Position numbers and translations under genes: made by a program
The notes under the pieces: model-generated
Databases searched by the model: none
What the model saw: only the letters and a program-made list of their open reading frames with translations
Told to the model about the DNA's origin: nothing
Assembly (NCBI GenBank): GCA_029821755.1
Contig: JALGSV010000002.1
Coordinates: forward strand, 18,591 to 82,590
Direction: 5' to 3'
Length of the DNA: 64,000 nt
DNA from: Candidatus Zipacnadum vermilionense
GTDB lineage: Bacteria > Armatimonadota > Zipacnadia > Zipacnadales > Zipacnadaceae
In this document: positions 7,720-37,137 of the stretch, one piece after another
How positions within the stretch are numbered: position 1 is the stretch's first letter
Layout: each line of letters opens with the position of its first letter

Positions 7720-9726
7720 TCAGAACACCGTCGCCAGCCCCACCAACTCCAGGCTGATCCGCCCGGTCTGTCGCGACCAAGACAGCCCCACCTCCCGGTC
7801 CTGGTAGACCTTCCGCCCTACGAAGAGCGACTGGTCCGAGTAGGACGACTCGTTCTGCCGATACCAGTTGCCCATCAACTCCACGCGCCACAGGGACGAC
7901 AGGTAGTAGTCCCAGGTCACCAGGCTGTACCAGTCTGAACTATCCAAATAGTCCTCCACGGTGCCGTACACCATCCATTTCCGGCCGTGGTAGGCTCGTA
8001 GTTCCGTCGAGATAACCTGCTGCCACCCCCCCCCCGCCATATTTCCGCTCAGGTGACTGGCGCTGTACCGCAGGTTCAGGTCCAGCGCCTCGCCGAACGA
8101 CCGTTTCAGTCGCACTTCCCCGCGCAGGTTGTTCCCGTGGAAGGGTGAGGTGTCCCAGGTGAAAACGTTGCTCAGGGAGGGAGTCAGGCGGGTGTTCCGG
8201 TCGAGCCGGATCGGCCGCCAGTCCATCGACCCGTACAGCTCCTGCACAAACTGCGGGTTGGTATTATTCAGGCCCGCACCTCTCTGCACCCCCGCCGACA
8301 CCCCTATCCGGTAGTACGGGCTCTGCACGGTCTTGCCAAACGGGCGCGGATCACTCAACCACTCCCCCACCGCTCCCCACGAGCTACCCAGGCCAGTCGG
8401 TTTCTGGTAGAAGCTGCGTAGGTTGACGCTGTACCCCGGACGGGAGTCGTACACCGACCCGTCATAGTACAAGCTCCTGTGGTCCGGCGAGGCCACGTTG
8501 AAGAAGGCGTTCGCTCCTCCCCAGATCGTCCGGCTGTCCCGCCACTGCGCCCCCCACTCGGACCTCGGCAGCCCGGACAGCGAAAGCACCCCGCTGGTCT
8601 GGCCTACCCGGTACTCATGTTGCAGCCCCAAACCCCACTCATCCGAGCCCATGATGCTGGTCGCCGGCGCCCCCTTCTGTAGGGCGACGGAGCTAGTCGT
8701 GTTCTCGCCGGCACTCAGGAAGTACGGGTAGTTGACCGCCAGGCCGCCACTGGAGCTAATCCCTAAGACCTGCGTGTTGGAGGCCCCCGTGTAGCCGGGA
8801 AGGGCGAAGATCCAGATCCGCGGCAGCGACATCAGCTTCTTCTCTTCGGTGTACAGCCCTCCCTCGCGGAATACCATCTTCTCGTTGCTGAAGACAGTGA
8901 CACGCTTGGCGATAATCCAGGTGGCGCTGGCGTCATCCTCCCGCTGGAAGGCGTCCTCAGGGATCTCCCAGTCCATGGCTCGCGCCTCGAGGGTGGCCAG
9001 ATCGAAGGTGACGCGTTCCACTCCCTCGCCACCCAAACGCCGCAGCACTCCTCGCTGGCGCTGCAGGTCCAGATAGAAATCCACCCCCTCCAACTCCACC
9101 TTGCCATCGGTCAGCACCCCCGGCCCGCCTCGCAGGATCATCTCTGCCACGTTCAGTTGCAGCAGATCGGCGCCTTCCAGCCGGATGCCGCCCATTCGCG
9201 CCCAGGCCTGGTCCCGCGTCTCTACCACCCCCTGGTCCACCGCGTACCCCGTCCAGCCTCCGCCCAGGTGCACGATATGCGTGTCGGCGAGGGAGGTCTC
9301 TCCGGGCCGGAGGAACACCACCGCGCCCTGTAGCCGAGAGTTCAAGGCGGTAACCGTGATGATGGCGGTGCCCGGCGCGTCGCTGACCAGGAAGGCGTTC
9401 ACTACGCCCCCGCGCGAGACCAGGTTGATAGTGGCCTCCCGATCGGCTCCGGTCGTAGTAAAGTAGCCGAAGTCAGTGTGCAAGACCACCGCCAGACCAT
9501 CGACGACGTAGCTGCCGTCGTCATTGCGCAGGTCCACGCGCAAGCGGGCGCGCGTCTTGCCGTCGGACGGCACGCGGTTCGGGGTAGCGCTCATGGAGAG
9601 GAAGACGCGGCCCATCAGGGCGCTCTGCGCACGGACCGGAAGAGGAACCGCCGCGCCGCCGGCACACAGCAGTAATCCGGCGGCGAGGCGCAGTAGGAGG
9701 ATTCCCGGCTTACGGATAGGGTTCAT
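7720..9726 (-). CDS. outer-membrane beta-barrel protein with N-terminal Ig-like domain, possibly LptD/OstA-like
   Basis: Signal peptide. N-terminal Big-1-like Ig segment. Long Gly/Ser/Tyr-rich beta-strand region ending in a terminal Phe (LELVGLATVF), the outer-membrane-protein signature. Confidence 0.4.
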   Translation of the reverse strand: MNPIRKPGILLLRLAAGLLLCAGGAAVPLPVRAQSALMGRVFLSMSATPNRVPSDGKTRARLRVDLRNDDGSYVVDGLAVVLHTDFGYFTTTGADREATINLVSRGGVVNAFLVSDAPGTAIITVTALNSRLQGAVVFLRPGETSLADTHIVHLGGGWTGYAVDQGVVETRDQAWARMGGIRLEGADLLQLNVAEMILRGGPGVLTDGKVELEGVDFYLDLQRQRGVLRRLGGEGVERVTFDLATLEARAMDWEIPEDAFQREDDASATWIIAKRVTVFSNEKMVFREGGLYTEEKKLMSLPRIWIFALPGYTGASNTQVLGISSSGGLAVNYPYFLSAGENTTSSVALQKGAPATSIMGSDEWGLGLQHEYRVGQTSGVLSLSGLPRSEWGAQWRDSRTIWGGANAFFNVASPDHRSLYYDGSVYDSRPGYSVNLRSFYQKPTGLGSSWGAVGEWLSDPRPFGKTVQSPYYRIGVSAGVQRGAGLNNTNPQFVQELYGSMDWRPIRLDRNTRLTPSLSNVFTWDTSPFHGNNLRGEVRLKRSFGEALDLNLRYSASHLSGNMAGGGWQQVISTELRAYHGRKWMVYGTVEDYLDSSDWYSLVTWDYYLSSLWRVELMGNWYRQNESSYSDQSLFVGRKVYQDREVGLSWSRQTGRISLELVGLATVF

Positions 9727-9735
9727 ACGGCGACT

Positions 9736-9765
9736 GGCCGGCCCGACAACTTCGCCGGGCCGGCC
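9736..9765. terminator. intercistronic hairpin GGCCGGCCCG-N10-CGGGCCGGCC
   Basis: Perfect 10-bp inverted repeat between the FN3 membrane-protein gene and the barrel gene on the minus strand. Confidence 0.4.
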
Positions 9766-9778
9766 GAGGAGTCGGCGG

Positions 9779-10840
9779 TTAGGACGAGGCAGGTGGGAAG
9801 ATGATCTGCGTGAAGTTCGCGTAGGCGCTGACTGCCTGGGTGGTATAGACCGCCGCGATGCGGTAGCGATACCGTTCCCCAGAGGTCACGTTGTTGTCGA
9901 AGAAGCTGGTCGCGCCCGGCCCGACCAGCCCTCCGTCGATGAACTGGTAGGGCTGTCCATTCACGGAGCGTTGGATCTGATAGCGAAGCAAGGTCAGGTC
10001 CCCTACCTGTGGCGCCCGCCAGGTCAACTGAATGCCGCCCGTCTGTACCACCAGGGATACCGGGACCGGAGGCAAGGCCCCCTGCGGAGCCCTGTTATCG
10101 CTCTTGGCGCCGCTGATCACGAGAGCGAGCAGGCCGACGACCAGAACCGCGGCAATCCAAGAGGTATTGCGCTTGCGCGAGGGCGCTTTCGGCGCCGTCG
10201 CCTCTTCTCCGGCGATGGCCCGCGCCACCTGCCCCACGGCCTCCCGGACCGCCTCCTTAATGAGCGGCTGGTCGGAGCCGGCGTACTGCGTCACCAGCCG
10301 CGATTCCCCTACTACCTTGAAGGTCCGCTCCGAGGTCGGCGTAGCCGAGGCCTCGCCAGTCTGCGTGTTGAAGTTGGCCCCCACGGCGTACAGCTCCCCG
10401 GCCAGGCTGATCTTCGCTTGCTTGGGATACTCGGTGATGACCAGGATCTCTACAGTGACTTGCAGGACGGCGTCAGCCCCCAGCGCGTGCCCGATCACCA
10501 CGGCTGCCGAGGGGCTCGGCGGGGCAGTCTCCACCTGCGCGGGCAACACCCGACCCTCCGATATGGCGCGGCGCACTAGCGGGGAAGTAGCACTGAAATC
10601 TAGCCCGGCCAAGCCCTGCTTGCCGGTGATGCCCAGGACCAGGTCGTCCGAGATCCACCTGGACAGCCGCGCGTCGCCCCGGCCGCTGTGATCGGATACC
10701 GGCAGCACCAGTATCTTACGCGGCCCCTCCTCCTGCGCCCGCACCGGCCCGGCTGCAACCGGTACCAGCGTGGCGATGAACGCTGCCATCAGTAGCCAAT
10801 ATAGGGTGCGGCACAGCCTGCTTCTTAGAATTACGGTCAT
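9779..10840 (-). CDS. single-pass membrane protein: periplasmic LpoB/TolB-N/CsgG-like N-domain, TM helix, C-terminal fibronectin type III domain
   Basis: Signal peptide, ILVLPVSDHSG...LGADAVLQVTVE pattern, TM helix WIAAVLVVGLLALVI, FN3-like tail. Paralog of the 18784..20670 gene. Confidence 0.5.
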   Translation of the reverse strand: MTVILRSRLCRTLYWLLMAAFIATLVPVAAGPVRAQEEGPRKILVLPVSDHSGRGDARLSRWISDDLVLGITGKQGLAGLDFSATSPLVRRAISEGRVLPAQVETAPPSPSAAVVIGHALGADAVLQVTVEILVITEYPKQAKISLAGELYAVGANFNTQTGEASATPTSERTFKVVGESRLVTQYAGSDQPLIKEAVREAVGQVARAIAGEEATAPKAPSRKRNTSWIAAVLVVGLLALVISGAKSDNRAPQGALPPVPVSLVVQTGGIQLTWRAPQVGDLTLLRYQIQRSVNGQPYQFIDGGLVGPGATSFFDNNVTSGERYRYRIAAVYTTQAVSAYANFTQIIFPPASS

Positions 10841-11193
10841 TGCTTCCGGCCCCCTTGATTCGATGAGGTCAAGTTGTTGTGACCACCGGAATGCGCCGAT
10901 GGCCGCGCCAGGACTCGCATCTGCTCACCGCGGCAGGGGCCTTACCCCGGTGCCGCTGGTGCTGTCTCGCAGGGCCCGCCCCTGCGTCAGGGGCACGTTA
11001 CTGCGCCCCTCCCTCGACCGGTCCCGGACTCCCCCGGGATCAGCCTTTCCACTTGCCCAGTCGCCCGCAACCTCCCCTCCCCACCGTCCGGGCGATGTGC
11101 CGCGCGACGGCCCCCTCCTCCTCAGCGAGCGGGAACGAGCGCGGCCGCTAGTGCCGACTGCGGCCTGCGCACGGGCCCAGATACGAGCCTCGC

Positions 11194-14064
11194 TTACCGC
11201 GTCACCTCGAAGCTGGTGACCAAGCTGTTGGCCTGGCCGCTCTCCGGAGAGCGCGCAGTGATCTGGCACAGGTAGCGCCCGGACGGCACCCGGGTCCCGC
11301 TATCGCTCCGGGCGTTCCATAGTACGGTGTTGACCCCTGCGGTCCCCACCTGCCCGATGCTCACGCGGCGGATGACCACGCCGGCGATGTTACGGATCAC
11401 GACGTCCACACTCGCCGACGACGCCAGCGCATAAGTGAGAGCGAGTTGCCCCCCCGGCGCGGCCTGCGCTTGGACGCTCGTAAGCAAAGCGGCCGCCGAT
11501 CCCCGCGGCTGCGCCACTATCTTGAACAGCCGGCTTCCCTCTTCCATCATCTGGAAGGAATACGCCGCCGTTGTGCGCATGTAGCACCGCGTGCCACTGG
11601 CCACATCCTCCAGGATCAGCGTGTACTTCTCCGGCACCGCCGACAGGTCCGGCCAGGCCACGGCCAGATTGCGCTGGGCGCCGGCGGAGGTAACCTGCAG
11701 GTACCAGGTCTTCTCATTGCCGTCGTCGGCCTTAAGGTCCACCATGCGCTGCTCTCCGCCGCCTCCGGCGGAGACGAAGGCCGCCTGCAGACCCGTGCCG
11801 AAGGGCGAGGGCGGTGCGAGCAGATCCCGAGCATCCGCCCCATCCTTGGCCTCGCGTGCCACCCCGAAGGCCCGCACCATCGTCGCCGCACCTCCACCGC
11901 TGACGGTGATCCCCGCCCGCCAGCCGTTGGCCGCTGGGCTCACCTGGGCTATCGGAGCCGCGCTTACGCCCACCGCACTGGGCGGCGGCACCAGCAACTC
12001 GGTATCGTCATACGCCAAGATCCAGTAGCCCACGAACGGGTCCAGCCGTACCTTGGCTAACTGCTCCTCCCACCCATACTGCCTCGTCATCGGGTCGTAA
12101 TCAAACACCGTAGGCTGCAGCAGCGCCCGGCCGATCGCCTCCGCCATGGTCAACTGCCCACTGTCGGAGCTGATCACCTGCATGTCCCGCAGGTAAACTG
12201 GCAGGATGAACGGGTTCCCGATCTGATTCCAGCCCTTGGTCAGCGAGATGCTGACCGACGTGAGGCTCGGCACCGGCTGGGCGTCCGCCGGCAGCACGAT
12301 CTGCTGCTGCGCCCGGTTTAGTAGCCAGTACCCCTTCCCCACCGCCACGTTGGTCACAAAGGGGTTGGGGAACCAGCGATAGATGAGCGACAGCGGGTCC
12401 CAGCGAATCAGCGCTCCGAGTTGTCCCGGCTGCAACCCGCCCAGGCTCTGGAAAACGTGTTCCGCGTCGCTGTTGGTGAACTCGTAGGGGATGGAGATCA
12501 TCTCCAGCCCGTCGGGTGAAGGCCGCGGATTGATCACTGGGACCGAGGGTATGGTGATGGTCCGGTCCACCGCGCGCCCCCGGGGTCCGGTCAAACCCAC
12601 CGTCACTACTCCCGGCCGCGCCCCGCTGGCGCTGACATTCCAGACTGCCCCCACGAACCCGTCCCGCGGGATCGCCCCGAAGGCCTGGGTTTGCGGCTGC
12701 GTATCCGGTGACAGGGTCAACCCCTCCGGCAGCCTGATGCTCGCGCTGGTCCCCGCCAGGGCGGATGCGCCGAAGTTGTCCACGAAAATCCCCATCGGGA
12801 AGGGCGAGCGCCCCTGCCCGTCGGCCAGGTAGCAGCTCTCGACGATGTCCGGAGTCGAGGGATCGTCTCCGGCGGCTTCCTGCAGGCGCTGCGGGCCGTA
12901 GCCCATCGTCGCGAAAGTCGGCTCGTAGTTGGCCGTCGAGGCCCCAAAGGCAAGGTATGTCACGTACCGTCGCGAAGCGCCCGCCGGAAGGTTGAGCTCA
13001 TTCCACTTGACTCCCACACCCCAGTCCTGCCCCACGATAGACAGCGCCGGGTTCGGGACGAAGTCGAAGTTCGCACCCGCCAGACGCGCCCACATCCCAA
13101 TCTCCACTGCATCCGGCACCCCCGCCGAGGACCCGGCCGTGTTCCGCTGGCGTACCTCCGGCGCATCGAGTACACCTTTTACCGAGATCAGCGGGTTAGT
13201 GGGATCGTCGTACGCCACCCAACCGGTCGGCATCACCCCGGCGCCCCCCGACAGCACGCGCTCGTTGCGGATAGTCGTCCCGTCCGGCAGTATGACCGAC
13301 GTCCCGTCGCGTACGCCGGCCCCGCCGAAGCCGGTGTCGAACCCCCAGCGCACCCCTACACTATGTGGCTCGGCGGTGGTGTTGGTCACGATAAGCTCGA
13401 GCATCAGCGCGTCGCCCACCAGCTCGTAATTGTGGTAGACAGTCAACGAGTCGTCTATCGGGACTTGAAGCGGCACCACCGGCGGCTCCACCGGCGGCTC
13501 CACCGGCGGCTCCAGCGGGTCGTCTATGTCACCTGTGTCGTCTCCGCCTTGATCGGTAAGCGGCACAAGCGAAGTTCCCCTCGCTGCGCGGGTGGTGGCG
13601 GTCAGCGGCACCGGCCAGTAGCTGGGCAGCGTACCGGGATCGGCGGCCGTCTCTGCCTCGTTCATGGCCGCGTACGTATCGAACAGTAGCGCCTCGCCAT
13701 CTTCTACCGTAGCATCCACGGAGAACTGCAAGAAGGAGGTGAAGCCGGTAAAGTCGTTCGTATCGTTGAACGCCTTGCTGGCGATAGCCACGTCCTCATC
13801 GCCGGTCCGAGTGGGGTCGCCCCCCCGGGGGGCGAGCCGTCCCGTCAGCAATTGGAACCGGCCCGCCGGCCGAACCCAGAAGTCAGTCCCCACGGACACC
13901 ACTTGCGGTGCGCCGATCTGCATCCGCATTAGTCCGCCGGGCTGGGAGATGTCCAGCATCGACTGGGCCGCGGCCGGGCCCGACAGCGCCACTGCCGCGA
14001 AAGTGCAGACCAGGGCCATCACACCTGCGATGAGCATCTTCTTCGATATAAGGCTACAGTGCAC
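11194..14064 (-). CDS. giant secreted protein (956 aa) with shared C-terminal modules and FlgD-Ig/T9SS-like C-terminal domain
   Basis: Signal peptide, Pro-rich linker (PVEPPVEPPV). A C-terminal ~450-aa region is shared with the 14098 and 20934 gene products, including module A (SIPYEF...RW.P..Y..P...GYWL) and the CTD ...RNIAGVVIRRV...WNARSDSGTRVPSGRYLCQITAR. Confidence 0.6.
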   Translation of the reverse strand: MHCSLISKKMLIAGVMALVCTFAAVALSGPAAAQSMLDISQPGGLMRMQIGAPQVVSVGTDFWVRPAGRFQLLTGRLAPRGGDPTRTGDEDVAIASKAFNDTNDFTGFTSFLQFSVDATVEDGEALLFDTYAAMNEAETAADPGTLPSYWPVPLTATTRAARGTSLVPLTDQGGDDTGDIDDPLEPPVEPPVEPPVVPLQVPIDDSLTVYHNYELVGDALMLELIVTNTTAEPHSVGVRWGFDTGFGGAGVRDGTSVILPDGTTIRNERVLSGGAGVMPTGWVAYDDPTNPLISVKGVLDAPEVRQRNTAGSSAGVPDAVEIGMWARLAGANFDFVPNPALSIVGQDWGVGVKWNELNLPAGASRRYVTYLAFGASTANYEPTFATMGYGPQRLQEAAGDDPSTPDIVESCYLADGQGRSPFPMGIFVDNFGASALAGTSASIRLPEGLTLSPDTQPQTQAFGAIPRDGFVGAVWNVSASGARPGVVTVGLTGPRGRAVDRTITIPSVPVINPRPSPDGLEMISIPYEFTNSDAEHVFQSLGGLQPGQLGALIRWDPLSLIYRWFPNPFVTNVAVGKGYWLLNRAQQQIVLPADAQPVPSLTSVSISLTKGWNQIGNPFILPVYLRDMQVISSDSGQLTMAEAIGRALLQPTVFDYDPMTRQYGWEEQLAKVRLDPFVGYWILAYDDTELLVPPPSAVGVSAAPIAQVSPAANGWRAGITVSGGGAATMVRAFGVAREAKDGADARDLLAPPSPFGTGLQAAFVSAGGGGEQRMVDLKADDGNEKTWYLQVTSAGAQRNLAVAWPDLSAVPEKYTLILEDVASGTRCYMRTTAAYSFQMMEEGSRLFKIVAQPRGSAAALLTSVQAQAAPGGQLALTYALASSASVDVVIRNIAGVVIRRVSIGQVGTAGVNTVLWNARSDSGTRVPSGRYLCQITARSPESGQANSLVTSFEVTR

Positions 14065-14097
14065 TGATCGCTCTCTCCTCTCGCCGGCTTCCCTGGA

Positions 14098-17000
14098 TTA
14101 GGGGAATACCTCGAAGGGCCGGATGGCTTGCACCGTCTGGCCCTTGTCCGTCCGGGCCGTCAGGCGCACCACGTAGCGCCCTGCCGGCACCTTGCTGCCG
14201 CGATCGCTGCGGCCGTTCCACACCAGCAACTCCACCGCTCCCCCCGCCGTGAGCTGGGGGCTGAACTGCTTGATGAGCAACCCCGAGATGTTGCGGATCT
14301 CCGCTGTCACCTCGGCAGGCTGCGACAGCGCGTAGGTAAAGGCCACGCCGCCGCCCGTTATCCCTTGCGCGCTGACCCCGCTCAGGCTCAACCCGCCCAC
14401 CGCTTCCGTCGAGGCGATGATCCGTACCCGCCGCGTGCTGCCCTGCGGCCCCGAGTTGAAGCTATAGCCCGCCGAGGTCCGCATGTAGATCTCCTCACCG
14501 GTGTCCAGATCCTCCAGCAGGAGGGTGACCCCGGCGGGGACGGTGGCGTTCAGCTCCGGCCAACGCAAGGACACCTCGGAGTTGGGCTGGGCGCAGGCGA
14601 TCTCCATATCCCATTCCTGCCGCCCCGAAGCGGGTCTAACTATCTGCGCGTAGTACGCCGACTCGTCGCCCCAGTCCCTCTCCACCAGCGCTGCACGCAG
14701 GCTGCTATCCACCGCCGGCGGCTTCCCCACAGCCCAGAAGGGGCTGTACGCGGCCGTCGCCTTGGTGTTCATGCCGATGTAGTTGCATGGTTCGACTACG
14801 CCGTTGGCGGTCGCCACCAGTTGTAGCCGCCATCCCTCGCCACCCTCGGTCGGCCGCGGCGTCGCCGTCTGCGTGGCGATCACCGGCGCGTAGATCACCA
14901 GCGTCGTATCCTTGCGCACCCGCAGCCAGTAGCCCTGGAACGGCTCCAACATCGCCGAGAAAGGATCTGCCGAGAATGTATAGTAGCCGCCCGAGGCGGT
15001 GCTGCGGAACCCGAAGAGAACGCCGTCGGTCACCCCGGAACTGATCGCTTCGGCCAGGGTCTCTCGCTTGCCGGCGGTCACGAACTGCACGCTGCCGAAA
15101 TCGACCGGAGTAAGGAAGGGACAGCCGATCATGTTCCAGCCCCGCGGCTCGCGGCTTCCCATGAGTAAGTTGATGTCGTACTGCGTCAGCCCCGCGACCG
15201 GAGCCCCGGTGATGTTGAGAGTCGTCGCCCGCGGCAGGCGCACAAAATAACCTATTCCCGCCGGCGGTTGGGGCACAACCTGTGCTGGCCCCGATGCGTC
15301 CGGCGGGTCGAAGGTCGCGTAGGGGTCGGGGTACAGGTGATACTGAGTGTCCCCCGGCCACCAGCGCGCCAGCCGGACCTCCTCGCTGGATAGCCCGAAC
15401 ACCTGGCTGGGGTCAGGGAAGCTGCCCGGCGCGTAGGTGTAGGGCAGCGAGAACAAGTGGATGCCCGCGTCCATCCTGGGCAGGGCCACCCGGAAATTGG
15501 ACAGCGCGGTCACCGACCGGTTGCCGTCCTGGTCCGCCACCGAAAGTGTGAGCTGATGGCTGGCCAGGGTTAGCGACGTCGTTACCTGGAAGGTGAGCAC
15601 GCCGCTAGTCGCGTCGAAACTGTAACCGGTGAGCTGCCGGCCATCGATCGCCAGCAGAATGCTGGCGGGGTCGATCCCGGTGCCGGTGTCGATGAGGGAG
15701 GCGCGGATCAGCGGCGTCCGGGTGTTGATGGTCGTGCTGTTCTGCGGGAAGATAATGGTCACCGTCGGCAGATCAGTGTCCCGTCCCGCCTGCAAAGTCA
15801 AGCGACCCTCCCCATAGGTGTTGCTGGGCGGAGAGGTGTCGGTTGGCAGCGGCTTGGCCAGCATCAGTATAATACGCCGCAGGTCCGCCCCAGTCCGACT
15901 AGGGTTCTCTGAGTACAGCAGGGCCGCGGCTCCGGCGACATGCGCCGCACTAGCGGACGTGGACAGGAAGGGGGTATAGGCGGCCAGACTGGTCGTCACC
16001 CGGTCCGGCCCCACCATATTCGGCTTGCGCGAGCCACCCACGGTCGGCCCCTGGCCGCTATAGAGCTCAATGTCGTCTATCCCCGGTGCCGGCGGCACCC
16101 CCGCCGTACCCGCGGTTGCCCCCACCGTCAGGGCCCGGGACGACATGGCGGGGATTGGCAGGCTGGTGGCGGCTACCGCCACGCTGACCGGCAGGTTCGC
16201 CGCCGGCGTATACAACTGGAACTTGTCCGGTTGCATCAGATCCGCCCGCACCGCCTTGATCCGTAACTCATGGACTCCCGCCGTGATGACCTGTGCGATC
16301 AGCGTTTCCCGCGGGGGTGTGGCGCCGTTCTGGGACACGCCCGAATCCGCGATCAGGGTCGTGCCCTGCCACAATTGCAGGTTGTAATCCTGCGAGGTAA
16401 CCGCTCCGGCGGTTTCATACCATGATAGAAAGGCCGTAAACTCGCCCGCCGGCAGGTCGAGGCTGACACCGGTATTGGTCTCGATGTCGCAGAAGGTGTC
16501 GCTGTTCACGTCAACAAAGGTTCCCTGCCAGTGGCGCTGGGCCAGGTCTCCCGAAGCCTGCACCCATAGCACCCCGCTGTCGCTCGCCGTGGCCACTGCC
16601 TGCGAGATCATGTCACTACCGTCGAAGGGCCCGTCGACCGTCCCCACGGTGTTGACGACAGCGGTATACCGGTTCGTAGCTACGTAGTTGATCGCCTGCC
16701 GCAGGGAGAGCGCGGTGTCGACCGCGATGAGGATGAAGTTAGCCTGCGGAGCCATGTCCGCGGCCACCTCCGCGGCGGCCGTCCCCAAGGCATCGGTGCC
16801 CATGGTGCCGTCCGCGCGGAAGGACACTTGGGCGGGCGTAGGGATCTCTGCGTCGACAGCTCCGGCAAACCCCTCCGCGATGATGCCGATATTGGCGCCA
16901 GCCCCCGCGATGCCGAGGGACTGGTATGAGGAGGCGTTCGTTAGCTGTACGCCTTCACTCACGTTGGCCCCGAAGCCAAAGATCGCCTGCTGCGGCCGCA

Positions 17001-17508: not shown

Positions 17509-18699
17509 CTACCTCCCACCCCGCGCCAGGAAAGCCATTCTCTGCAGGTAAGCCCGCAGGAGCAGTGCCCAGTCGGCCGTGAAACCCCCGTCCGGCTCCG
17601 CCCCATACCCCTGCGCCCACGACCGTATATCCAGCGGATAGAATATGCCCAATCCGGACCCAGTTTGCTCGCTGTCGTCCGGTTCCTGCCTCCAAGCCTC
17701 CACGGTCGCGTTCTGCGCCGCCACACTCACCTGCTTGGCCAGGTCCGCCACCTCCGGCACGGTAGTCGTCTCTGCCAGCGCCTGGGCCAGCGAGGTCACG
17801 GCTACCAGCTCCCGCCGCGGCCCCCAACCCGCCGCCTCTCCCCGGGCCAGGGTCAACTCCGGCGCGAGCCCCTCCACCCGCGGCAGGGCCGTCTGCGCCA
17901 AACTCCGCAGGGCCTGCGTCAGCGCCGGCAGGCGCCCCAAGTCCACCGCTACCAGACTCGACGGTACCTCCCGCCGCTCCCCCCAAAACATTCGGGCCTG
18001 CCGCGAGGCCTCCAGGGCTAAGTCGCGGCCGCCTATCTCCGGCCGGCGAAGCAACTGTCCCAGAATGGCTCCCCACGGCAACCCCGGCGAGTACAGCAGT
18101 CCCGGCGCCGCCACCATGTATCGCGCTCGTCCCACCAGCCGATCCGCCACCTCGACGCTGCCCGAGTAACAGCAGTCCAGCGATACCAACTCAATCGGCC
18201 GGGGTTGCCCCACACCCAACGCCGCGGCCACCGTGCGAATCTCCAACCGTCCCGCCGCATTCTGCGTCTCCTGGTCCTCGGGCGCCGGCGAGACCCCATG
18301 CGCCAGGATGAGCAAAGCGTAGCGTTCTGCCGGGGCCTCCTCCCGTACCCAGCCGACAAACTCCGCCAGCGCGGGTGTCCGACCCATGTCCGCTGCCACT
18401 TCCGTAGCCGGTCCGGCCGGACCACCCATGAACACCCAGCGCCGCGCCATCTTGTGCCGGGTCTCGTCCTCCACCTGCGCCGCCACCACCACGCGGCCCG
18501 CCCCTCCGGGCGTCTCCAGAGCACGGCGCATCTGCTCCAAGTACCCCTTCGCAGCCTCCTGCAACCCCCCCCGGGCCCGCAGATAGGCCATCACCGTCCA
18601 AGCGGCCGGCTCCGACGCGCCAGATCCCGGTCCGGCCGCCGCCACCACCAGTCCCACGGCCAGCAGCAACACTCGGATTGTGTGCGCCACACCCCTCAC
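17509..18699 (-). CDS. clostripain-like cysteine peptidase (family C11), secreted
   Basis: Signal peptide. WTVMAYL N-terminal pattern, His motif LLILAHGVS and Cys motif LVSLDCCYSG at the spacing typical of C11 peptidases. Confidence 0.5.
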   Translation of the reverse strand: MRGVAHTIRVLLLAVGLVVAAAGPGSGASEPAAWTVMAYLRARGGLQEAAKGYLEQMRRALETPGGAGRVVVAAQVEDETRHKMARRWVFMGGPAGPATEVAADMGRTPALAEFVGWVREEAPAERYALLILAHGVSPAPEDQETQNAAGRLEIRTVAAALGVGQPRPIELVSLDCCYSGSVEVADRLVGRARYMVAAPGLLYSPGLPWGAILGQLLRRPEIGGRDLALEASRQARMFWGERREVPSSLVAVDLGRLPALTQALRSLAQTALPRVEGLAPELTLARGEAAGWGPRRELVAVTSLAQALAETTTVPEVADLAKQVSVAAQNATVEAWRQEPDDSEQTGSGLGIFYPLDIRSWAQGYGAEPDGGFTADWALLLRAYLQRMAFLARGGR

Positions 18700-18783
18700 T
18701 GCTGCTGCTCGCTTATCAACCGGCCCTCCCGATCTCGACTTACCGGTCGGAACTCTCCCGGCGCCAACCTGTGCCCGCCACCG

Positions 18784-20670
18784 CTACCGCCCCGGCGTAC
18801 GACGCTCGCGCCACCAGCCCCGCACACCCGTCGGCCGTCCGCCCTCTACCGCCGCCGCTGCCGGCCCGGGCGGCAGGGCCACCGTCTTGAAGCTTGTCCG
18901 CTCGCTCAGCACCCACGGCAGAGTGCGTGAGCCGCCTACCTTGCACGAAGGCTTCGTCTCCCCCGAGGTCCGACTGGCAACGACCCACCACATGGTGGTG
19001 TCTCCCGGGAAGATGAAGTCGTTGAAGGTGTACCGTAGCAGCGTCTGCCCCGTCGCCGCCGTGCGCGTGGGGCTCGCCGTTACCAGTTGCGTCAACTCCC
19101 GGTCGAGATAGACCTGCACCTGGTATTGGTCCGCGCCCCGTGACGGCATCCATTCAAAGGTAGCTGCCTGGGGATTAACGGTGGTGCTTCCCAGTGGGCG
19201 CTGCTGCACCGCCGGCAGCGAATAGGTTACTGGCGGCGTAGCCGGGCTGGGGTTGCCCAGCGCGTCCGGCGGATCTACGGCGAAGGTAACGGCGATGAAC
19301 TCCTGCTGGGGATTGGGCAATATCGGTCGCCACGGGTCTACCAGCCGCCGCACCTTGTAGTAGTAGGTGTTGCCCGCTACCAGTTCGGCGTGGTTGTACG
19401 TCGCGGTCAGGGTGCCGGTCTCCTGCTCCCCGGCTCGGCTGAAGAAATCGAAGGATATGTCGGAGGTGATGCCCACCTGTCGGTCCTGCGTGTCCTCGTA
19501 GTAGTTCAGATGCGCGTCCGGAACGATCGCCACCAGCGGCCCGCCGTCCAGCGTGCCGTCGCCCATAGCGGTAGCGTCGGCGACAAAGCCGGCGCTACGC
19601 CCTCGGTAGAACAGGAAGGCGTGCGTGTGTTCGGGGTCTGGGTTGAGGTTGCGGGAAATGTTCACCCGGATAACCGGCGTGGACCCCGGGAACTCCTGCG
19701 ACACCAGGGCACCGACCACGGGCGGGGTGATGTTCTGGTTGCCGGTGGCGGTAGCGACGATCCCGAGGATCAGAGCTCCCGCGGCCAACAAGCGCAGGCT
19801 CGAAGTGGTCTTGTGCCCCTTCTGGATGGACTTGACCTCCGAGGGCGGGCTGTACAGCACGTAGACCCGGTCCCCAATGCGCGGGGTCCTACCGCTGACG
19901 ACCTTCGCCTGCGAGAGACGCACCTGCACTCCCGTCAACTCGATCACGCCCAGCGGGCGCATGACCGTCTGCTCCAGGCTGCGATCCCAGTAACCCCGCA
20001 TGACCAACAGCCGGGTACCTGCCCCCACTCCGTCGTTAATGCCCAGATCCGTCGTAATGACGCCCTGGTCATCGACCAGATAGATGCTGCCATGGCGAAT
20101 CCGCGTTCGCTCCATCTCGGCGACCGCCGCTTCCGCTACCTGGCGCAGCGCCTCGTTTATGACCGGGACCAAGTCTCCATTGAACCCGGGAATCGCCTTG
20201 GTGTTGACCTGCACGGCCGCGCCACTTAGCACCGCTCGGATAGGGATGTTGTAGGCGCGCAAGTCCATGGCCACGCTTACCGCCCCATTGCTCCCGTCGG
20301 GTGCTAGCTTGGTGAGAGTAGCCGTGACCACCACATCTGCCTGCAGGTCCTGGCCCACCCGCAACTGCATGCTCTCATTCAGCGGGGGAGTCATATCCTG
20401 CGCCGTGAGTTCGCGCTGCAAGTCTGCCTTGGAGATGACGCGATAACTCCTGGAGTCTTCGAGGGCGAGGGCCAGCGCGTCGGTAGCCTTGGCGCCGATC
20501 ATCGGATCACGCCCGCCGGTCGCGTCCGTCACCGGAATGACGACGGCAGCCGTGACCTCCCGGGCCTGGGCACAGGCCGGCGTCAGATAAACGCGTACTG
20601 ACGAGGTCATGAGAGCTACAACGAGTAGTGACAGCGACCAGTACAGCGGGCGACAGCGTAGTATGTGCAT
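18784..20670 (-). CDS. single-pass membrane protein, paralog of 9779..10840 (LpoB/TolB-N-like N-domain, TM, FN3-like C-terminal region)
   Basis: Signal peptide; AAVVIPVTDATGG...DVVVTATL pattern matching the paralog; TM helix LRLLAAGALILGIVATA. GGGAGGGAG lies ~10 nt upstream of ATG. Confidence 0.5.
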   Translation of the reverse strand: MHILRCRPLYWSLSLLVVALMTSSVRVYLTPACAQAREVTAAVVIPVTDATGGRDPMIGAKATDALALALEDSRSYRVISKADLQRELTAQDMTPPLNESMQLRVGQDLQADVVVTATLTKLAPDGSNGAVSVAMDLRAYNIPIRAVLSGAAVQVNTKAIPGFNGDLVPVINEALRQVAEAAVAEMERTRIRHGSIYLVDDQGVITTDLGINDGVGAGTRLLVMRGYWDRSLEQTVMRPLGVIELTGVQVRLSQAKVVSGRTPRIGDRVYVLYSPPSEVKSIQKGHKTTSSLRLLAAGALILGIVATATGNQNITPPVVGALVSQEFPGSTPVIRVNISRNLNPDPEHTHAFLFYRGRSAGFVADATAMGDGTLDGGPLVAIVPDAHLNYYEDTQDRQVGITSDISFDFFSRAGEQETGTLTATYNHAELVAGNTYYYKVRRLVDPWRPILPNPQQEFIAVTFAVDPPDALGNPSPATPPVTYSLPAVQQRPLGSTTVNPQAATFEWMPSRGADQYQVQVYLDRELTQLVTASPTRTAATGQTLLRYTFNDFIFPGDTTMWWVVASRTSGETKPSCKVGGSRTLPWVLSERTSFKTVALPPGPAAAAVEGGRPTGVRGWWRERRTPGR

Positions 20671-20933: not shown

Positions 20934-23900
20934 CTACCTCCCCAGCCACACGCCGGTCACCGCCTGCGCGACTTGGCCCTCCGGCGTCTGCGCCTTCACG
21001 GTTACCAGGTAACGCCCCGCGGGCGCCGCCGACCCCGCGCCGTTCCGCCCGTTCCAGGTCAGCGTTTGCACGCCCGCCCCCTGCGGCAGGGAGCTTACCA
21101 GCCGGCGCACCACCACACCACTTAGATTGCGGATCTCGACCGTCACCGCCGATTCGGCGCCCAGCGTGTAGCACAAGCTTACCCGACCGGCGCCCGGCGT
21201 CGCGCTCAGCGCGGAGACCACCGCCGTCCCCGGCTCGGAGACGACCGCTGTGATCTTGAAGCGCCGCTCGCCCTCCTGGGCGGTGAACCGGTATCCCGCG
21301 CTGGTGCGCATGTACACGCGCTGCCCGGTGGCGAGGTCCTCCAGCACTGGCCGCACCTCGTTAGGCAGCAGGGACAGATCCGGCCAGCCCACCACCACCT
21401 GCGCACCCTTCTGGTTGGTCTGCACCGAGACCACCCAGCTCTGCCGCGCCGCCGCCGCGCGCATGTCCACGGCCAGCGGGCCCGGTGCGCCGTCCTTGAC
21501 CAGCGCTGCGTAGATGTAGGGCTGGAAGTCCACCGCGGGCGGCTTCAACTGGTCCGTGAGGCTGTTGTAGGTCGCCTTGCCCTGGGCCGAGACGCCCAGG
21601 ATCGTCGCCTCATCTGCGCAGCCCGCGCCGCGCACCGTCAGCGGCAGCAGCCAGCCTCCGGCCGGGGCGTCCATCCCCCACCGCGCCCGCACCGCGCTCG
21701 TCGCCGGCCCGCTCTCCACCGACAGCCCGCCGGTCGCCGCGCTCACCCACAGGGTCAGCGGCTCACCTGCCCGCAGCCAGTACCCCACCCACGGGTTCAT
21801 CGTCGAAACCATCCGGTAGCCGCCCAGCACATAGGCGAACAGCGTTCCCTGGAGCTTGGGTGGGCTGGAGGTGATGGCCTGCTGCAGAGACATCATCACG
21901 TGGTTCTCATCCTCAACCTGCACCGTCCCAAAGTCGATCTGCTGGTCGAAGGGATCGCCAATAATGTTGAAGCCGGCCTTGACGTGAATCGGGTACGGAT
22001 CGCCACCTGGGGTCCCCGCCCGTGTCAGGTCAACCCGTGCCGGCAGATTCAGCCAGTATCCACTCCCCAGCCGGAAGTGATCGGCCGGTGCCTGCGGATA
22101 CAACGCATACCGGTTAGCCTGCGGCAGCCACGTCGCTAGCATCAACCCGCCACCGCCCTGCCCGAGCAGCCGAGCCGGGTCGTTGACGTCCACCCCACCC
22201 ACTTCCCGGGTGGGATAGTCGTAGGGCATCGATATCAGCGACAGGCCGGCAGCGAACGTGTGTAGGGAGGACAGCGTGAAGTTGACGCTCGTCGTCTCTC
22301 GCTCGGTGACCACGGTTACCGTCCGACTCGGTGGGGTGATCGTGAAGCCCGGGGCCTCCGGCACCACATCGACGACCCCGGCGGGGGCGGACGGGAACCG
22401 ATAGTTGTACGGATCGCCCACCGCGGGAGTGGTGAACTGCGGGTCTGACTGCACCGCCGGCACCACGTCCACCCCGTTGACGCGCAGATGGACGGTGACC
22501 CCCCCGATGGGGGTCCCGCTCGCAGCGCTAACGATCTTCCCGCTCAGTGAACCGTCCGCCTCGGGCGAGAGCGTAATCGTCACCTGCGTGATGCCGGACG
22601 GCATAACCACTTGCCCGGCTTGGGAGCCCACCCCGAATCCTGGCGCCGAGGCCGTCACGGTATAGGTGCCGGCCGGTACCTCCCGCGTGACCCTACCGTT
22701 GCCGTCGGTCACCCCCGAGGCCACCACCGTCGTGCCTTGCAACACCTGCACGGTCGCGCCGGCCAGCGGCTCTGGGCCGAGCGTTCCGGGGCGCTGCACG
22801 GTGATCTCTAGGTTACCAGGCGCCGCACCGAGCTGGAAGTCCGCCCGGGTGCTAGTGCTGGACGTCACGTCCACCATCTGCTCGGCGGTCCCGTAGCCGA
22901 TGTCGGTGCCGTCCGCCTCCGCGATATACGTCCCCGGCGGCACTCCTATTGCGTACGTCCCGTCGGCTGCGGTGGTGGTGGAGCCTACCTCGTCACCCCG
23001 CACAAACCCGGTTGCCGGCGGAGTAGCGGCCACTGCCTGGTAAATGGTGATCTTGACGTTCCCCAGCACCTGCCCCGTAGCCTGCGCGGTGACCGTGCCG
23101 GAAATCGCCCCCGGCGGCGCCGCGTTGAGGACGAAGTCCACGACATCGGGAGCCTTTGCGGCATGTGCCAGGTGGACCCCGGCGTCCCGCGCCAGTTGGT
23201 ACTGCGGATGGAAGGCCTCTAACAGGTAGTTGCCGGGCGCCACGCCATTCATGACGTAGGTGCCGTCACTCTGGCAGCGCACCGCGTACTTGACCTCCCC
23301 GCCTTGCAGGGCCCGGACGATGGGACTGGGATTCTGAATTGGCTGCCCGTCCATCGCCAGTACGCGTCCCTGGAAGCTGCCGGTCGTCATCCAGATGTAG
23401 GAGTTAGTTAGCAGACGTGACCGGTGGTTGGCGCAGTGCGCCCCGGCCCCTGGCGCGTGGTACCCACGGTGGATCTGCTCAAAGCCAAAGGCCAGGTAGA
23501 CCAGTTGCGCGCCGTTCGTCACGTCCTGGAAATGCAGGCCGCCCGCCGGCCCGTCATAGGCGAAGTCCCCCTCCGCGTTGTACCCGTACAGCTTCACCGC
23601 CGGCGCCAGCACTGTGATCGCGTCCGGGAAGTAGGAGTTGTTGGCCGCATCCTGCTTCCACCCATCGGCCACGTCGTTGGTCACCCGGGGCGTCTCCATG
23701 TTCACCGGCGCGTCTTCCGCGTCGTAGCCGCCGCCCCAGATCGGCCCGGCCACCGGGTCGGTGGCCTGTCCGCCCAGGGTGAAGCCGTAACCCATCGCCC
23801 TGTCGGTGACGAAGTTGGCGTGCAGCGTGTTGGTGAAGAAGGTGTTGGCAGTGGTCCCATTGAGCGTCAAGGCCCAGCCGATGTCCTGACCGCTCACGAA

Positions 23901-25892
23901 CAGCTTCCCGCCCGTGCTCATGTAGTTGGACAAGTCGGCCTGCACCGCCGGGTCCACTAGGGAGCCGGAGTTGCTCGGTACCCAGACATTCCCGGTGTGC
24001 GGAGCAGCCCAGACGATCATATGCTCCGACACCGGCACCCGCCGTGTAGGTTGCGCGTCCGTCGGATCACTGGCCTGGGCCTCTGGGTCGAGCTGGAACT
24101 CGATGGTGGGCTTGTAGATCGAGTAGACGGTAGCGGGGACGCGCCCCCGGCAGATCACCCGCCAGGTGTCATATGACAGGCCGAAGAACCCGGCGATGGA
24201 GTCCGAGCTAATGGTGCCGCGCGCGGTCTGCTCGAAGCCCGGATTAGACCGGTAGTAGCTCTCCACCGGGAACCCGACCGGGATGGTGCTGTTGTCACCC
24301 AGGCGCGAGATGAACTTCTGCCCCTCGCAGTAGTCGTCCACGAACAGGACGCGCCCGGTCGGGGTGAACTCCCGGGTACTGAAACCGAACAGCGAGTCGT
24401 ACCGCAGGCTGTTGCCCACGTTATCCGACGCCTCAATATCGATGATGTAGTCGTGGGGCGCTAGCTCAGTGGTGAAGGTGCCCGCGTACGTCCCGTCCCC
24501 CTCGGGGTCCGTCAACTCCACCGTGCCCACGATGACCGATTCCATTTCCAGCCACCGGTTTCCCTCGGTGAAGCCGCTGTCAAAGACCAAACCGGTGCTC
24601 ACCGCATAGAGCTTGCGGTCGGGGTCGTGCAGAATGGCCGTGACCTGCCGCACGCCACTGCCGGCATCCGAGACCGGGACACTGATCTGCACGTCCGCGC
24701 CGGGAGCCGGAAGCCGGTTGTCCACCCGGGGGATCTCTCCCAGCCGCGGCGGCAGGACGTCGGCCAGCATGTGAGAGTACAGGTCGATATTGTCGCGGGA
24801 GGGGCTGGTCTTGTCGGACTCGTAGACCACCCGCAACTCTTGCCGGTCCAGCGGGACGCTGATCGTGGGGTTAGTGTTGCTGAAGGTGTCGCTGGGGTCG
24901 GCCTGGGCGCTGAGCATGGCCGGGGAGCCCGTCGTCTCGCCCACGTCGGACATGCGCCAGATGTTGAAGTTGTGGATGCTGTCTCCGGCCCCGGTATACC
25001 GGTCGGAGGCAAAGGCGAGGGTGGCTGCGGTGCTCTGCCAGGAGGGCTGCTTGTCGTTCGCGCCAGCGTCCCCGCCCCCGTCGGACAGGGCCGTCGCGAC
25101 CGTCCCCTGGTCGTCTATCTGGTAGACGCGCGTGACGCTGCCCATGCGCGCGGTGTAGGCGATCAGATTGGAGTTCGGCTCCCAGGCCGGGTCACTGGCC
25201 CCGAGGCCCGAGGTGAGCTGCACCGGCGCGCCCGAGCCGTCCGAGCGCCCCTTGTAGACCTGCCGCGTGCCGGAGGCGTCGGAGTCGAAGGCAATCCAGT
25301 TCTCATCCGGAGACCAGGTGGGATGCCGCTTGTTGCCGGCCCCCGTTGTCACCTGTCGCACCGTGCTGGTGGCAATCTCAAAGATGTAGATCTGGTAGGT
25401 GCCGCTCTGGTCGTTCGCGAAAGCGAACATGTTCCGGCTGGGGTCGTAGGACGGCTCGCGGGAGTCCCCGGGGAGATCGGCGATCTGAATCTGCTCGGTC
25501 CCATCCGGCCGCATGATCCAGAGGGTGTAGTGGGCGTTGGCCGGGAGGGTCGGGTCGATGCGGCCGTTGCCATCGGCGTCCACGCCGTTGGAGGCGAAGC
25601 CGATGCGGTTGGTAGTGCCGCTGACCCACGCCGTCGGGTCTACCTGATCACTATCCGGGGTGTTGAAGGTGAGGTTGGCGTCCGGGGCCGCCTGCTGGGC
25701 GCGCACCGCCGCCGGCAGAGGCGGTAAAGCAGTGGTGATGACTGGCCGTCCCCCGCCCGGCCCGCTCCAGCCCGCACTGGTCGCACCAGGCAGCGCGACG
25801 CCTACGGCGGCCACGGCGAGGATGAGAGCGGAAACGATCAGGAAATAAACAAGAACCGCACGTCGACGGTGGCCCTTGCGCAACACTATCAC
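20934..25892 (-). CDS. giant secreted protein (1652 aa): TolB-like beta-propeller (PD40 repeats), carboxypeptidase-regulatory-like domains, shared C-terminal modules, FlgD-Ig-like CTD
   Basis: PD40-like repeats (IAFDSDASGTRQVY, LIAYTARMGSVTRVYQ). CarboxypepD_reg-like segments (GTYTVTASAPGF, GNYLLEAFHPQY). The C-terminal 450 aa are paralogous to 11194 and 14098. GTG start region with AAGGAG. Confidence 0.6.
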   Translation of the reverse strand: MIVLRKGHRRRAVLVYFLIVSALILAVAAVGVALPGATSAGWSGPGGGRPVITTALPPLPAAVRAQQAAPDANLTFNTPDSDQVDPTAWVSGTTNRIGFASNGVDADGNGRIDPTLPANAHYTLWIMRPDGTEQIQIADLPGDSREPSYDPSRNMFAFANDQSGTYQIYIFEIATSTVRQVTTGAGNKRHPTWSPDENWIAFDSDASGTRQVYKGRSDGSGAPVQLTSGLGASDPAWEPNSNLIAYTARMGSVTRVYQIDDQGTVATALSDGGGDAGANDKQPSWQSTAATLAFASDRYTGAGDSIHNFNIWRMSDVGETTGSPAMLSAQADPSDTFSNTNPTISVPLDRQELRVVYESDKTSPSRDNIDLYSHMLADVLPPRLGEIPRVDNRLPAPGADVQISVPVSDAGSGVRQVTAILHDPDRKLYAVSTGLVFDSGFTEGNRWLEMESVIVGTVELTDPEGDGTYAGTFTTELAPHDYIIDIEASDNVGNSLRYDSLFGFSTREFTPTGRVLFVDDYCEGQKFISRLGDNSTIPVGFPVESYYRSNPGFEQTARGTISSDSIAGFFGLSYDTWRVICRGRVPATVYSIYKPTIEFQLDPEAQASDPTDAQPTRRVPVSEHMIVWAAPHTGNVWVPSNSGSLVDPAVQADLSNYMSTGGKLFVSGQDIGWALTLNGTTANTFFTNTLHANFVTDRAMGYGFTLGGQATDPVAGPIWGGGYDAEDAPVNMETPRVTNDVADGWKQDAANNSYFPDAITVLAPAVKLYGYNAEGDFAYDGPAGGLHFQDVTNGAQLVYLAFGFEQIHRGYHAPGAGAHCANHRSRLLTNSYIWMTTGSFQGRVLAMDGQPIQNPSPIVRALQGGEVKYAVRCQSDGTYVMNGVAPGNYLLEAFHPQYQLARDAGVHLAHAAKAPDVVDFVLNAAPPGAISGTVTAQATGQVLGNVKITIYQAVAATPPATGFVRGDEVGSTTTAADGTYAIGVPPGTYIAEADGTDIGYGTAEQMVDVTSSTSTRADFQLGAAPGNLEITVQRPGTLGPEPLAGATVQVLQGTTVVASGVTDGNGRVTREVPAGTYTVTASAPGFGVGSQAGQVVMPSGITQVTITLSPEADGSLSGKIVSAASGTPIGGVTVHLRVNGVDVVPAVQSDPQFTTPAVGDPYNYRFPSAPAGVVDVVPEAPGFTITPPSRTVTVVTERETTSVNFTLSSLHTFAAGLSLISMPYDYPTREVGGVDVNDPARLLGQGGGGLMLATWLPQANRYALYPQAPADHFRLGSGYWLNLPARVDLTRAGTPGGDPYPIHVKAGFNIIGDPFDQQIDFGTVQVEDENHVMMSLQQAITSSPPKLQGTLFAYVLGGYRMVSTMNPWVGYWLRAGEPLTLWVSAATGGLSVESGPATSAVRARWGMDAPAGGWLLPLTVRGAGCADEATILGVSAQGKATYNSLTDQLKPPAVDFQPYIYAALVKDGAPGPLAVDMRAAAARQSWVVSVQTNQKGAQVVVGWPDLSLLPNEVRPVLEDLATGQRVYMRTSAGYRFTAQEGERRFKITAVVSEPGTAVVSALSATPGAGRVSLCYTLGAESAVTVEIRNLSGVVVRRLVSSLPQGAGVQTLTWNGRNGAGSAAPAGRYLVTVKAQTPEGQVAQAVTGVWLGR

Positions 25893-37134: not shown

Positions 37135-37137
37135 CGA

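Follow-up and report, generated by a model that had tools for sequence, protein, structure and literature searches.

The stretch of DNA analysed here, which we call the window, comprises 64,000 nucleotides (nt) of Candidatus Zipacnadum vermilionense, a member of the Armatimonadota, and it contains at positions 7720-25892 a block of seven minus-strand open reading frames (ORFs), in the order G-F-E-D-C-B-A, which may together form an envelope operon that displays or anchors proteins at the cell surface. The seven genes and their predicted products are the following.

7720..9726 (-): gene A, 668 amino acids (aa), predicted outer-membrane protein
9779..10840 (-): gene B, 353 aa, predicted bitopic membrane protein
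11194..14064 (-): gene C, 956 aa, predicted exported giant protein
14098..17424 (-): gene D, 1108 aa, predicted exported giant protein
17509..18699 (-): gene E, 396 aa, predicted exported cysteine peptidase of the clostripain family (C11, clan CD)
18784..20670 (-): gene F, 628 aa, predicted bitopic membrane protein
20934..25892 (-): gene G, 1652 aa, predicted exported giant protein

The first-pass annotation of this DNA, made from the sequence alone, had described these genes as seven co-directional and closely packed minus-strand genes, and this was borne out, with the ORFs lying at these coordinates, with gaps of 52, 353, 33, 84, 84, and 263 nt between them from A to G, and with the same order recurring in more than 20 loci. 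The block is flanked by housekeeping genes, namely a plus-strand Ppx/GppA gene on one side and genes for an AA_kinase protein and a Peptidase_S13 protein (D-Ala-D-Ala carboxypeptidase) on the other, and no further copies of A-G were found elsewhere within the 64-kb window. According to hydropathy, all seven products begin with a signal-like hydrophobic N-terminal segment, and B and F have one additional internal transmembrane helix each. With regard to these N-termini, E and A are annotated publicly as shorter proteins (P0001 of 360 aa and P0015 of 631 aa, respectively), whose starts lie 36-37 codons further downstream than those of the ORFs analysed here and would delete both signal peptides; the longer starts are more likely correct, given that the orthologues retain longer hydrophobic N-termini.

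The three giant proteins C, D, and G are joined by their ends, since they are paralogous over their last 440-490 aa, with 29-32% identity and E-values of 1e-44 to 1e-50. The alignment divides this shared region, hereafter the module, into domain 1 (~190 aa), domain 2 (~150 aa), and a terminal FlgD_ig domain (~95 aa), the latter being the C-terminal domain (CTD), at the following positions.

11194-12519 (-): module in C, with FlgD_ig at 11248-11454
14098-15504 (-): module in D, with FlgD_ig at 14146-14352
20934-22277 (-): module in G, with FlgD_ig at 20985-21194

The FlgD_ig domains that end C, D, and G score 38-49 bits against PF13860 (cut-off 27), a family that is not specific to the type IX secretion system (T9SS), and domains 1 and 2 matched no model in Pfam or NCBIfam. 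The claim of three giants with paralogous ends of ~450 aa, finishing in a domain like FlgD-Ig or the T9SS CTD, was therefore upheld. An exhaustive profile search made with domains 1 and 2 only returned 13,080 cluster representatives at E<=1e-3, with 1,282 at E<=1e-30. In 142 of the best 152 matches, domain 2 is followed by ~99 residues that correspond to the CTD, and therefore we are dealing with a three-domain module placed at the extreme C-terminus; among these same best 152 matches, the region before the module spans from 1 to 2750 aa. Most of these top matches are orthologues of C, D, or G, and about 27 of the 152 carry unrelated passengers, such as an intact S8 peptidase with a fervidolysin-type propeptide, FG-GAP/ASPIC, Big_1, and CarboxypepD_reg domains. 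The named carriers of the module belong to the Armatimonadota, with a single outlier, a Candidatus Wallbacteria protein of ~4,700 aa, and in two of the loci compared (L028 and L031; each L number denotes one locus) some module proteins have no A, B, E, or F gene nearby. Given that its C-terminal position is fixed, its types of cargo are many, and some of its copies are unlinked, the module bears the signature of a portable sorting or anchoring signal; this modularity is plain in the proteins themselves, and, judging from their sequences, we suggest that the shared module would behave as a tag for sorting or anchoring.

Two further observations concern the module. Domain 1, with its pattern GWN-x-IG-x-PF ... 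GYW, resembles a short tandem repeat unit of other uncharacterised proteins, P0045 for instance, and it may represent a widespread beta-sandwich family that has no Pfam model. In L031 (5741-6829 and 15096-16836), another contig of the Armatimonadota, the surroundings of a module protein include a CsaB-like polysaccharide pyruvyl transferase as well as two CarboxypepD_reg proteins and genes of the LptC and LptA/OstA-like types, a neighbourhood which hints that module proteins are linked to envelope glycolipid or polysaccharide pathways; a 655-aa gene beside LptC/LptA in that locus was considered as a barrel of the A type and rejected, with an hhalign probability of 0.1% and no Pfam match.

In front of the module, the passengers of the three giants differ, as had been annotated. 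The passenger of C (residues 1-515) has an unassigned fold and matched nothing in Pfam or among the PDB sequences, and orthologues of C occupy the same position of the cluster in more than 15 loci. In G, a TolB/PD40 beta-propeller is followed by a middle region without assignment, and four CarboxypepD_reg domains precede the shared module; the cluster opens with this gene in L001, L002, L007, L033, and L040, and G is short in L007. D carries a degenerate S8 subtilase-like domain together with a Big_7-like immunoglobulin (Ig) domain, and its match to Peptidase_S8 (37.9 bits, cut-off 21.8) covers only the C-terminal half of the profile. In the window, and also in L001-L003 and L008, the Asp position of the S8 triad is occupied by A, E, Q, or T and the His position by L or T, the Ser also being gone in most relatives of the window clade, and the D orthologues of L011-L025 keep the complete D, H, S triad. 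Judged by these residues, the S8 domain of D in the window clade is catalytically dead, that is, a conserved pseudo-protease within a conserved operon (window 15500-17000). Elsewhere, the passenger at the D position is C39-like (L005), M6 (L030), or FG-GAP, has no S8 domain (L007 and L004), or has been lost.

No conserved lipobox was found in C, D, G, A, or F (nor any conserved lipobox Cys in the ortholog alignment of F), and the possibility that the cargo proteins (C, D, and G), A, and F are lipoproteins was rejected on this account. Sorting by sortases or exosortases (LPXTG, PEP-CTERM) was also rejected, since C, D, and G end in a folded beta domain (...FEVTR, ...FEVFP, and ...WLGR) without a terminal hydrophobic helix, and the cluster contains no sortase or exosortase domain.

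Between F and D lies E, which had been annotated as a secreted C11 peptidase embedded in the block, and this assignment stands, given that E matches Peptidase_C11 (PF03415) with 54.5 bits, above the gathering score of 25.8, that it begins with a signal-like segment, and that it conserves the His/Cys dyad of the family. Its predicted catalytic residues are encoded as follows.

18298-18300 (-): His134 of E
18169-18171 (-): Cys177 of E, within the motif Asp175-x-Cys177

The H134-G135 and D175-x-C177 motifs are invariant across 15 orthologues of E, which is the only peptidase of the cluster with an intact active site. The spacing of Asp175-x-Cys177, which we take to be that of the S1 Asp and the catalytic Cys of PmC11, suggests by analogy a specificity of E for Arg/Lys. 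Gene-neighbourhood conservation had been proposed beforehand as a check on the pairing of the C11 peptidase with the CTD proteins, and it was clearly found: all the relatives of E recovered from three independent collections sit between F and D. A word-indexed search of 5.8 billion proteins gave 14 homologues of E, all of which, where the context is readable, lie inside the cluster, and a metagenome scan seeded with the C11 alone added nine further loci (27-57% identity) with the C11 between F and D wherever the flanks are readable. In L021, the C11 is present though too divergent for tblastn, and it keeps the H-G and E-x-C motifs.

The whole arrangement is conserved across the phylum, with an identity of A down to 33%. 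The G-F-E-D-C-B-A order, or F to A where the contig ends, is kept in L001, L002, L007-L009, L011, L014-L016, L021, L023, L025, L033, L036, and L040, with 33-75% identity of A and with G upstream wherever it is visible. A scan of species-representative genomes recovered 18 loci from metagenome-assembled genomes of Armatimonadota, Armatimonadia, and 'Candidatus Zipacnadia', and the word-indexed search of 5.8 billion proteins gave 21 matches to A, the named ones being, like those of E, Armatimonadota. The genes flanking the cluster vary with the lineage, namely Ppx in the window clade, PTPS/QueC in L007, uvrB-uvrC in distant Armatimonadia, and RecQ in L006, and therefore the seven genes behave as a single unit that ends at A. 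Two co-directional ORFs of ~650-700 aa downstream of A in the distant loci were considered as additional cluster genes and rejected, since the reading of their translations identified them as typical uvrB and uvrC, which resemble none of A-G and are without homologues in the window. Within the Armatimonadia, the conservation of A, B, and F equals that of the cargo, from which they are never separated.

Two loci depart from this pattern. L006, where A has 23% identity, contains only G'-F'-B'-A', with E, C, and D missing, and its G' ends straight after domain 1 of the module, without domain 2 or the CTD, so that the peptidase looks to have been lost together with these two domains. L030, from a distant lineage of the Armatimonadota, has the order G'-F'-[M6 plus module]-[module protein]-[3083-aa B-like FN3 giant]-HisRS, with intact FlgD_ig ends. 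In the giant at the B position of this locus (L030:12750-22001), the N-terminal domain is B-like and precedes at least eight FN3 domains as well as Ig domains of the Big_1/invasin type; no barrel gene comes after this giant.

The last gene of the cluster, A, encodes a protein that starts with a signal peptide, has no cysteines beyond it, and is organised in three parts, all on the minus strand.

9307-9609 (-): invasin/Big_1-like Ig domain of A, residues ~40-140
8752-9279 (-): beta-jellyroll-like domain of A, residues ~150-325
7723-8742 (-): barrel of A, ~22 strands, residues ~329-668

Its structure was modelled with AlphaFold2 from an alignment of 21 sequences, with a predicted local distance difference test score (pLDDT) of 76 overall and ~90 over residues 150-300. 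When this model was compared with the PDB by Foldseek, ranks 1-15 were all full-length LptD entries (E 3e-12 to 3e-9), and the next class of folds, the ushers, appeared at E ~1e-5. Barrel-only LptD entries match A at just ~1e-4, and therefore the jellyroll contributes to the match with LptD. In the model, A thus presents the succession that characterises the LptD fold, namely an OstA-type beta-jellyroll followed by a very large C-terminal barrel. At the level of sequence, none of the 21 members of the A family matched PF04453 (LptD) or PF03968 (LptD_N, OstA) at E<=1, only one of them weakly matched LptC/OstA (LptC, E 0.0033), the profile of A against PDB sequences retrieved invasin and intimin only, with no LptD, and no usher family of Pfam was matched. 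Neither an LptE-like lipoprotein nor any lpt or lpx gene adjoins A in more than 20 loci, and wherever the barrel is present, B is its immediate upstream neighbour. The first-pass description of A as an LptD-like barrel with an Ig-like N-domain is thus supported by the fold, with the N-domain being invasin-like, and A appears, by its modelled fold, to be a large LptD-like barrel that lacks the LptD sequence signature.

B and F, the two bitopic proteins, are paralogous over ~130 N-terminal aa (E 3e-7). F begins with a signal peptide, followed by a CsgG-like alpha/beta domain (56-160) and a beta domain; its transmembrane helix spans residues 292-310, and after it the ortholog alignment shows a conserved C-terminal region and a basic tail. 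Its match to CsgG (PF03783) is marginal, with 21.8 bits for a cut-off of 20.8 and coverage of profile positions 34-135 of 210 only, and CsgG is matched by six of seven F orthologues. B comprises a signal peptide, an alpha/beta domain, a transmembrane helix (228-246), and a C-terminal FN3 domain, recognised by its profile match to titin (E 1.5e-14); it has no direct match to CsgG, and its CsgG-like link runs only through its paralogy to F. Both had been annotated as paralogs with a LpoB/TolB-N/CsgG-like domain and an FN3 domain, of which the paralogy, the CsgG-like domain of F (marginally), and the FN3 domain of B held, whereas F showed no significant Pfam or PDB sequence match to FN3, and the LpoB/TolB-N assignment of B has only the paralogy to F behind it. 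At E<=0.1, A, B, and F matched no NCBIfam model, T9SS components included.

The closest functional parallel is the T9SS of Bacteroidota. In both cases, a diverse cargo carries a folded Ig-like C-terminal domain (~80-100 aa), a dedicated clan-CD cysteine peptidase is present (E here and the C25 enzyme PorU in the T9SS), and an outer-membrane barrel is included, with a possible link to lipopolysaccharide (LPS). The CTD of the module also weakly matches Por_Secre_tail and the C-terminal Ig domains of PorU (NF033707) and PorZ. However, the best score against the T9SS type A CTD model (Por_Secre_tail, TIGR04183), that of G with 21.0 bits, is under the curated cut-off of 23, and six of ten module sequences match the T9SS CTD model only at E>=0.0034. 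The tag here also measures ~450 aa and includes two additional novel beta domains; C11, and not C25, is the family of the peptidase; the barrel is LptD-like instead of PorV/FadL-like or SprA; and machinery and three cargo genes share one operon in a different phylum, Armatimonadota. No C25 sortase of the PorU type exists in the cluster, the NF033707 matches corresponding only to the C-terminal Ig domain of PorU, and no PorK/L/M/N, SprA/Sov, PorV, or PorP/T domains were found among the large ORFs of the window that were scanned. The proposal of a T9SS-like logic built with different parts is therefore sustained, and of the profile families that had been named for checking it, FlgD_ig and Peptidase_C11 were found, whereas Por_Secre_tail (G being below the cut-off) and LptD (0 of 21) were not.

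The other known systems resemble single parts of the cluster. A shares with the LptD/LptE translocon the periplasmic beta-jellyroll, the large barrel, and the best PDB folds, and the LptD homologues to which a part in surface lipoprotein export has been ascribed (Borrelia BB0838 and E. coli LptDE) offer a precedent for protein delivery; nevertheless, A has no LptD sequence signature, carries an extra N-terminal invasin-like Ig domain, has a shorter barrel region (~340 aa) and no cysteines beyond the signal peptide, is adjoined by neither LptE nor another lpt gene, and is accompanied by a cargo without lipobox. E resembles the C11 enzymes PmC11 and fragipain in its Pfam score, its His-Gly and Asp-x-Cys motifs, and its signal peptide, and it differs as a narrow subfamily that was found only within this operon (14 matches in the word-indexed search). 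In F and its orthologues, the N-terminal alpha/beta domain recalls the first half of the CsgG profile and shares with CsgG an envelope/secretion context, but F lacks the conserved lipobox Cys, the match stops ahead of the transmembrane hairpins of CsgG, and the membrane segment of both F and B is alpha-helical and precedes C-terminal regions of the FN3 type (recognised as such in B). Finally, the chaperone-usher system (FimD/PapC), whose ushers are large barrels passing folded Ig-like subunits, provides the second-best fold class for A, although no chaperone or pilin genes are present here, and its E-values for A are seven orders weaker than those of LptD.

Taking all this together, we propose, with a probability of roughly 0.45, that the block is a lineage-specific and so far undescribed envelope operon of Armatimonadota, mainly Armatimonadia, that displays or anchors proteins at the cell surface by a mechanism similar to the attachment step of the T9SS without being a T9SS, a proposal which rests on the genes and their predicted products. 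In such a mechanism, C, D, and G, which all carry signal peptides, would be exported by Sec, and the C-terminal module, with its tag-like modularity, would serve as their address or anchoring tag. B, F, and the LptD-shaped A would form the membrane part that receives this tag at the outer membrane, and the cargo would be either passed to the surface or coupled to an outer-membrane lipid; the barrel fold of A comes from the model, and the physical contacts and the passage across the outer membrane are what we infer from it and from the linkage of the genes. E would process the cargo, plausibly at or near the terminal domain, by analogy with PorU; its catalytic dyad is intact and its co-location is strict, and both its substrate and the cleavage are assigned to it by this analogy. 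The joint loss in L006 of E, C, and D with domain 2 and the CTD counts in favour of this proposal, and the module proteins unlinked to the cluster (L028 and L031) are expected if they are further cargo. In a more specific version of the proposal, which we advance only tentatively as rather unlikely in all its details, the 450-aa tag would direct many kinds of cargo to A as an LptD-derived translocon, helped by B and F, and the C11 peptidase would work like a sortase, removing the terminal Ig domain, possibly with coupling to LPS. Such a translocon could be regarded, with the same doubtful standing, as a convergent counterpart of the T9SS attachment complex and as a second recruitment of the LptD fold for protein export. 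PorU (C25), legumain, and the glycosylphosphatidylinositol (GPI) transamidase are clan-CD enzymes that transpeptidate. This makes the model reasonable in our view, as does published work that implicates homologues of LptD in exporting surface lipoproteins, both in Borrelia and in E. coli (bioRxiv 10.1101/2022.12.21.521298; PMC12065857). No published description of this cluster was found in the literature searched on the envelope and secretion of Armatimonadota and on LptD-like and FlgD Ig-like proteins.

Several observations weigh against the display operon. The stretch of L030 that was read, which runs from G' to the downstream end of the cluster, shows neither a C11 in the interval separating F' from the next gene nor a barrel from B' up to that end; therefore, the C11-CTD link is strong in Armatimonadia and not universal, unless the missing genes lie elsewhere, and it may not be obligatory. 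The module itself retrieved only generic Ig/FN3 folds, its domain 2 is poorly modelled (pLDDT <50 across much of the domain), and the linker before the CTD shows no conserved Arg/Lys or other obvious cleavage motif. Moreover, a signal peptide plus one helix would place the FN3 domain of B in the cytoplasm, the positive charges of B and F lie on the N-terminal side of the transmembrane helix, and A may simply be the LptD of this lineage. The reading of the block in the first-pass annotation as a surface-display or secretion system is thus partly supported: the list of parts, the tag-like tail, and the C11 linkage agree with it, while L030, without C11 or barrel in the stretch read, does not.

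The idea that A is a divergent orthologous LptD of Armatimonadia with an added Ig domain is the most serious competitor, though in our judgement an unlikely one. The cluster would then be an outer-membrane biogenesis or envelope-maintenance neighbourhood, in which C, D, and G would be structural proteins of the periplasm or outer membrane, B and F tethers, and E a housekeeping or maturation peptidase, with no dedicated secretion. The uniform LptD matches of the model of A, its jellyroll-plus-barrel architecture, and the weak LptC/OstA match of one of its 21 members would fit this idea, as would the single-copy cluster placed among housekeeping genes, the TolB-type propeller of G, and the LptC/LptA-like genes that occur in the phylum (L031). 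Armatimonadota hold the LPS core genes, and a divergent LptD that escapes sequence searches has already been suspected in diderm Firmicutes (PMC5007114). Nevertheless, not one of the 21 sequences matched the Pfam LptD or LptD_N models, no PDB sequence match to LptD was obtained, no LptE-like, lpt, or lpx gene lies beside A in the more than 20 loci, and A is always in an operon directly after B; an orthologous LptD would also leave unexplained both the portable module on enzymes of secreted type and the restriction of this C11 subfamily to the cluster.

Alternatively, C, D, and G could co-assemble through their modules, by oligomerisation or wall binding, into an S-layer-like or other extracellular coat that is self-contained, or into a degradative complex, with E as an activator of pro-proteins, A, B, and F as anchors or porin, and the crossing of the outer membrane left to a general pathway encoded elsewhere. 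We find this distinctly unlikely, because the module occurs on many unrelated passengers, some of them unlinked, which fits a tag better than a private interface, and because conservation in Armatimonadia is as high for A, B, and F as for the cargo, with which they always occur. This coat would account, however, for the presence of three module proteins in the cluster with no other copy in the window, for the dead S8 domain of D in the window clade, which suggests a structural role, and for L030, which keeps its modules without E and A in the stretch read. C11 enzymes such as PmC11 and fragipain, the latter from Bacteroides fragilis, are activators of secreted proteins, a role consistent with that given to E in such a coat. 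As for a bona fide but highly divergent T9SS, we judge it very unlikely indeed, since the CTD score stays under the curated cut-off, the peptidase is a C11 instead of a C25, A, B, and F match no NCBIfam model, and the host belongs to the Armatimonadota (Terrabacteria), outside the FCB (Fibrobacteres-Chlorobi-Bacteroidetes) group from which, to our knowledge, the T9SS is known.

These alternatives are of interest because the way in which diderm Terrabacteria secrete proteins and anchor them at the surface is almost unexplored, and the Armatimonadota have few cultured members. If the display operon is real, it would represent a new route for the display of proteins at the outer membrane and a case of convergent evolution of the logic of a folded C-terminal domain plus a clan-CD peptidase, and it would take further the notion, now emerging, that barrels of the LptD type can handle proteins besides LPS. 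The three-domain module, present on more than 1,200 protein clusters, offers a bioinformatic marker for the surface proteome of Armatimonadota, and given that no Pfam or NCBIfam model covers it, at least two new domain families can be defined, in addition to the families of A, B, and F. If A were instead a true LptD, a gap would be filled, namely that of the divergent LptD 'missing' from several deep-branching diderm lineages.

Regarding the expression signals of the block, one promoter-like site was identified.

26024..26052 (-): TTGCCA, 17 nt, TG-TATACT, ~130 nt upstream of the start of G

This sigma-70-like site is a consensus match only; chance would give 2.3 such sites, and the minus strand of the block has this one. 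The intergenic gaps of the block contain no terminator-like hairpin, as far as weak consensus evidence goes, and Rfam and tRNA scans of the 64-kb window found nothing. The gap between C and B (10841-11193) is unusually long (353 nt, non-coding, and without an Rfam match), the same gap in L001, L002, L004, and L007 being of 62-214 nt, and it could conceivably contain an internal promoter or a regulatory element.

Other genes of the window lie outside the cluster. Just past it, at 5083-6714 (-), there are two tandem thymidylate-kinase-like genes (273 and 269 aa), and a transporter block at 33939-39872 (-), with two ABC-2 permeases, an ABC ATPase, and an HlyD-type membrane-fusion protein, has no sequence relation to the cluster. 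Pfam gives no match, or only a weak one to CBM9, for three very long ORFs at 39688-44004 (+), 44111-47392 (-), and 48518-52102 (+), which encode 1438, 1093, and 1194 aa, and the first of them overlaps two minus-strand ORFs; given the GC content of 67%, some of the three may be spurious. Finally, a 741-aa protein encoded at 61097-63322 (-) combines VIT and von Willebrand factor A domains.

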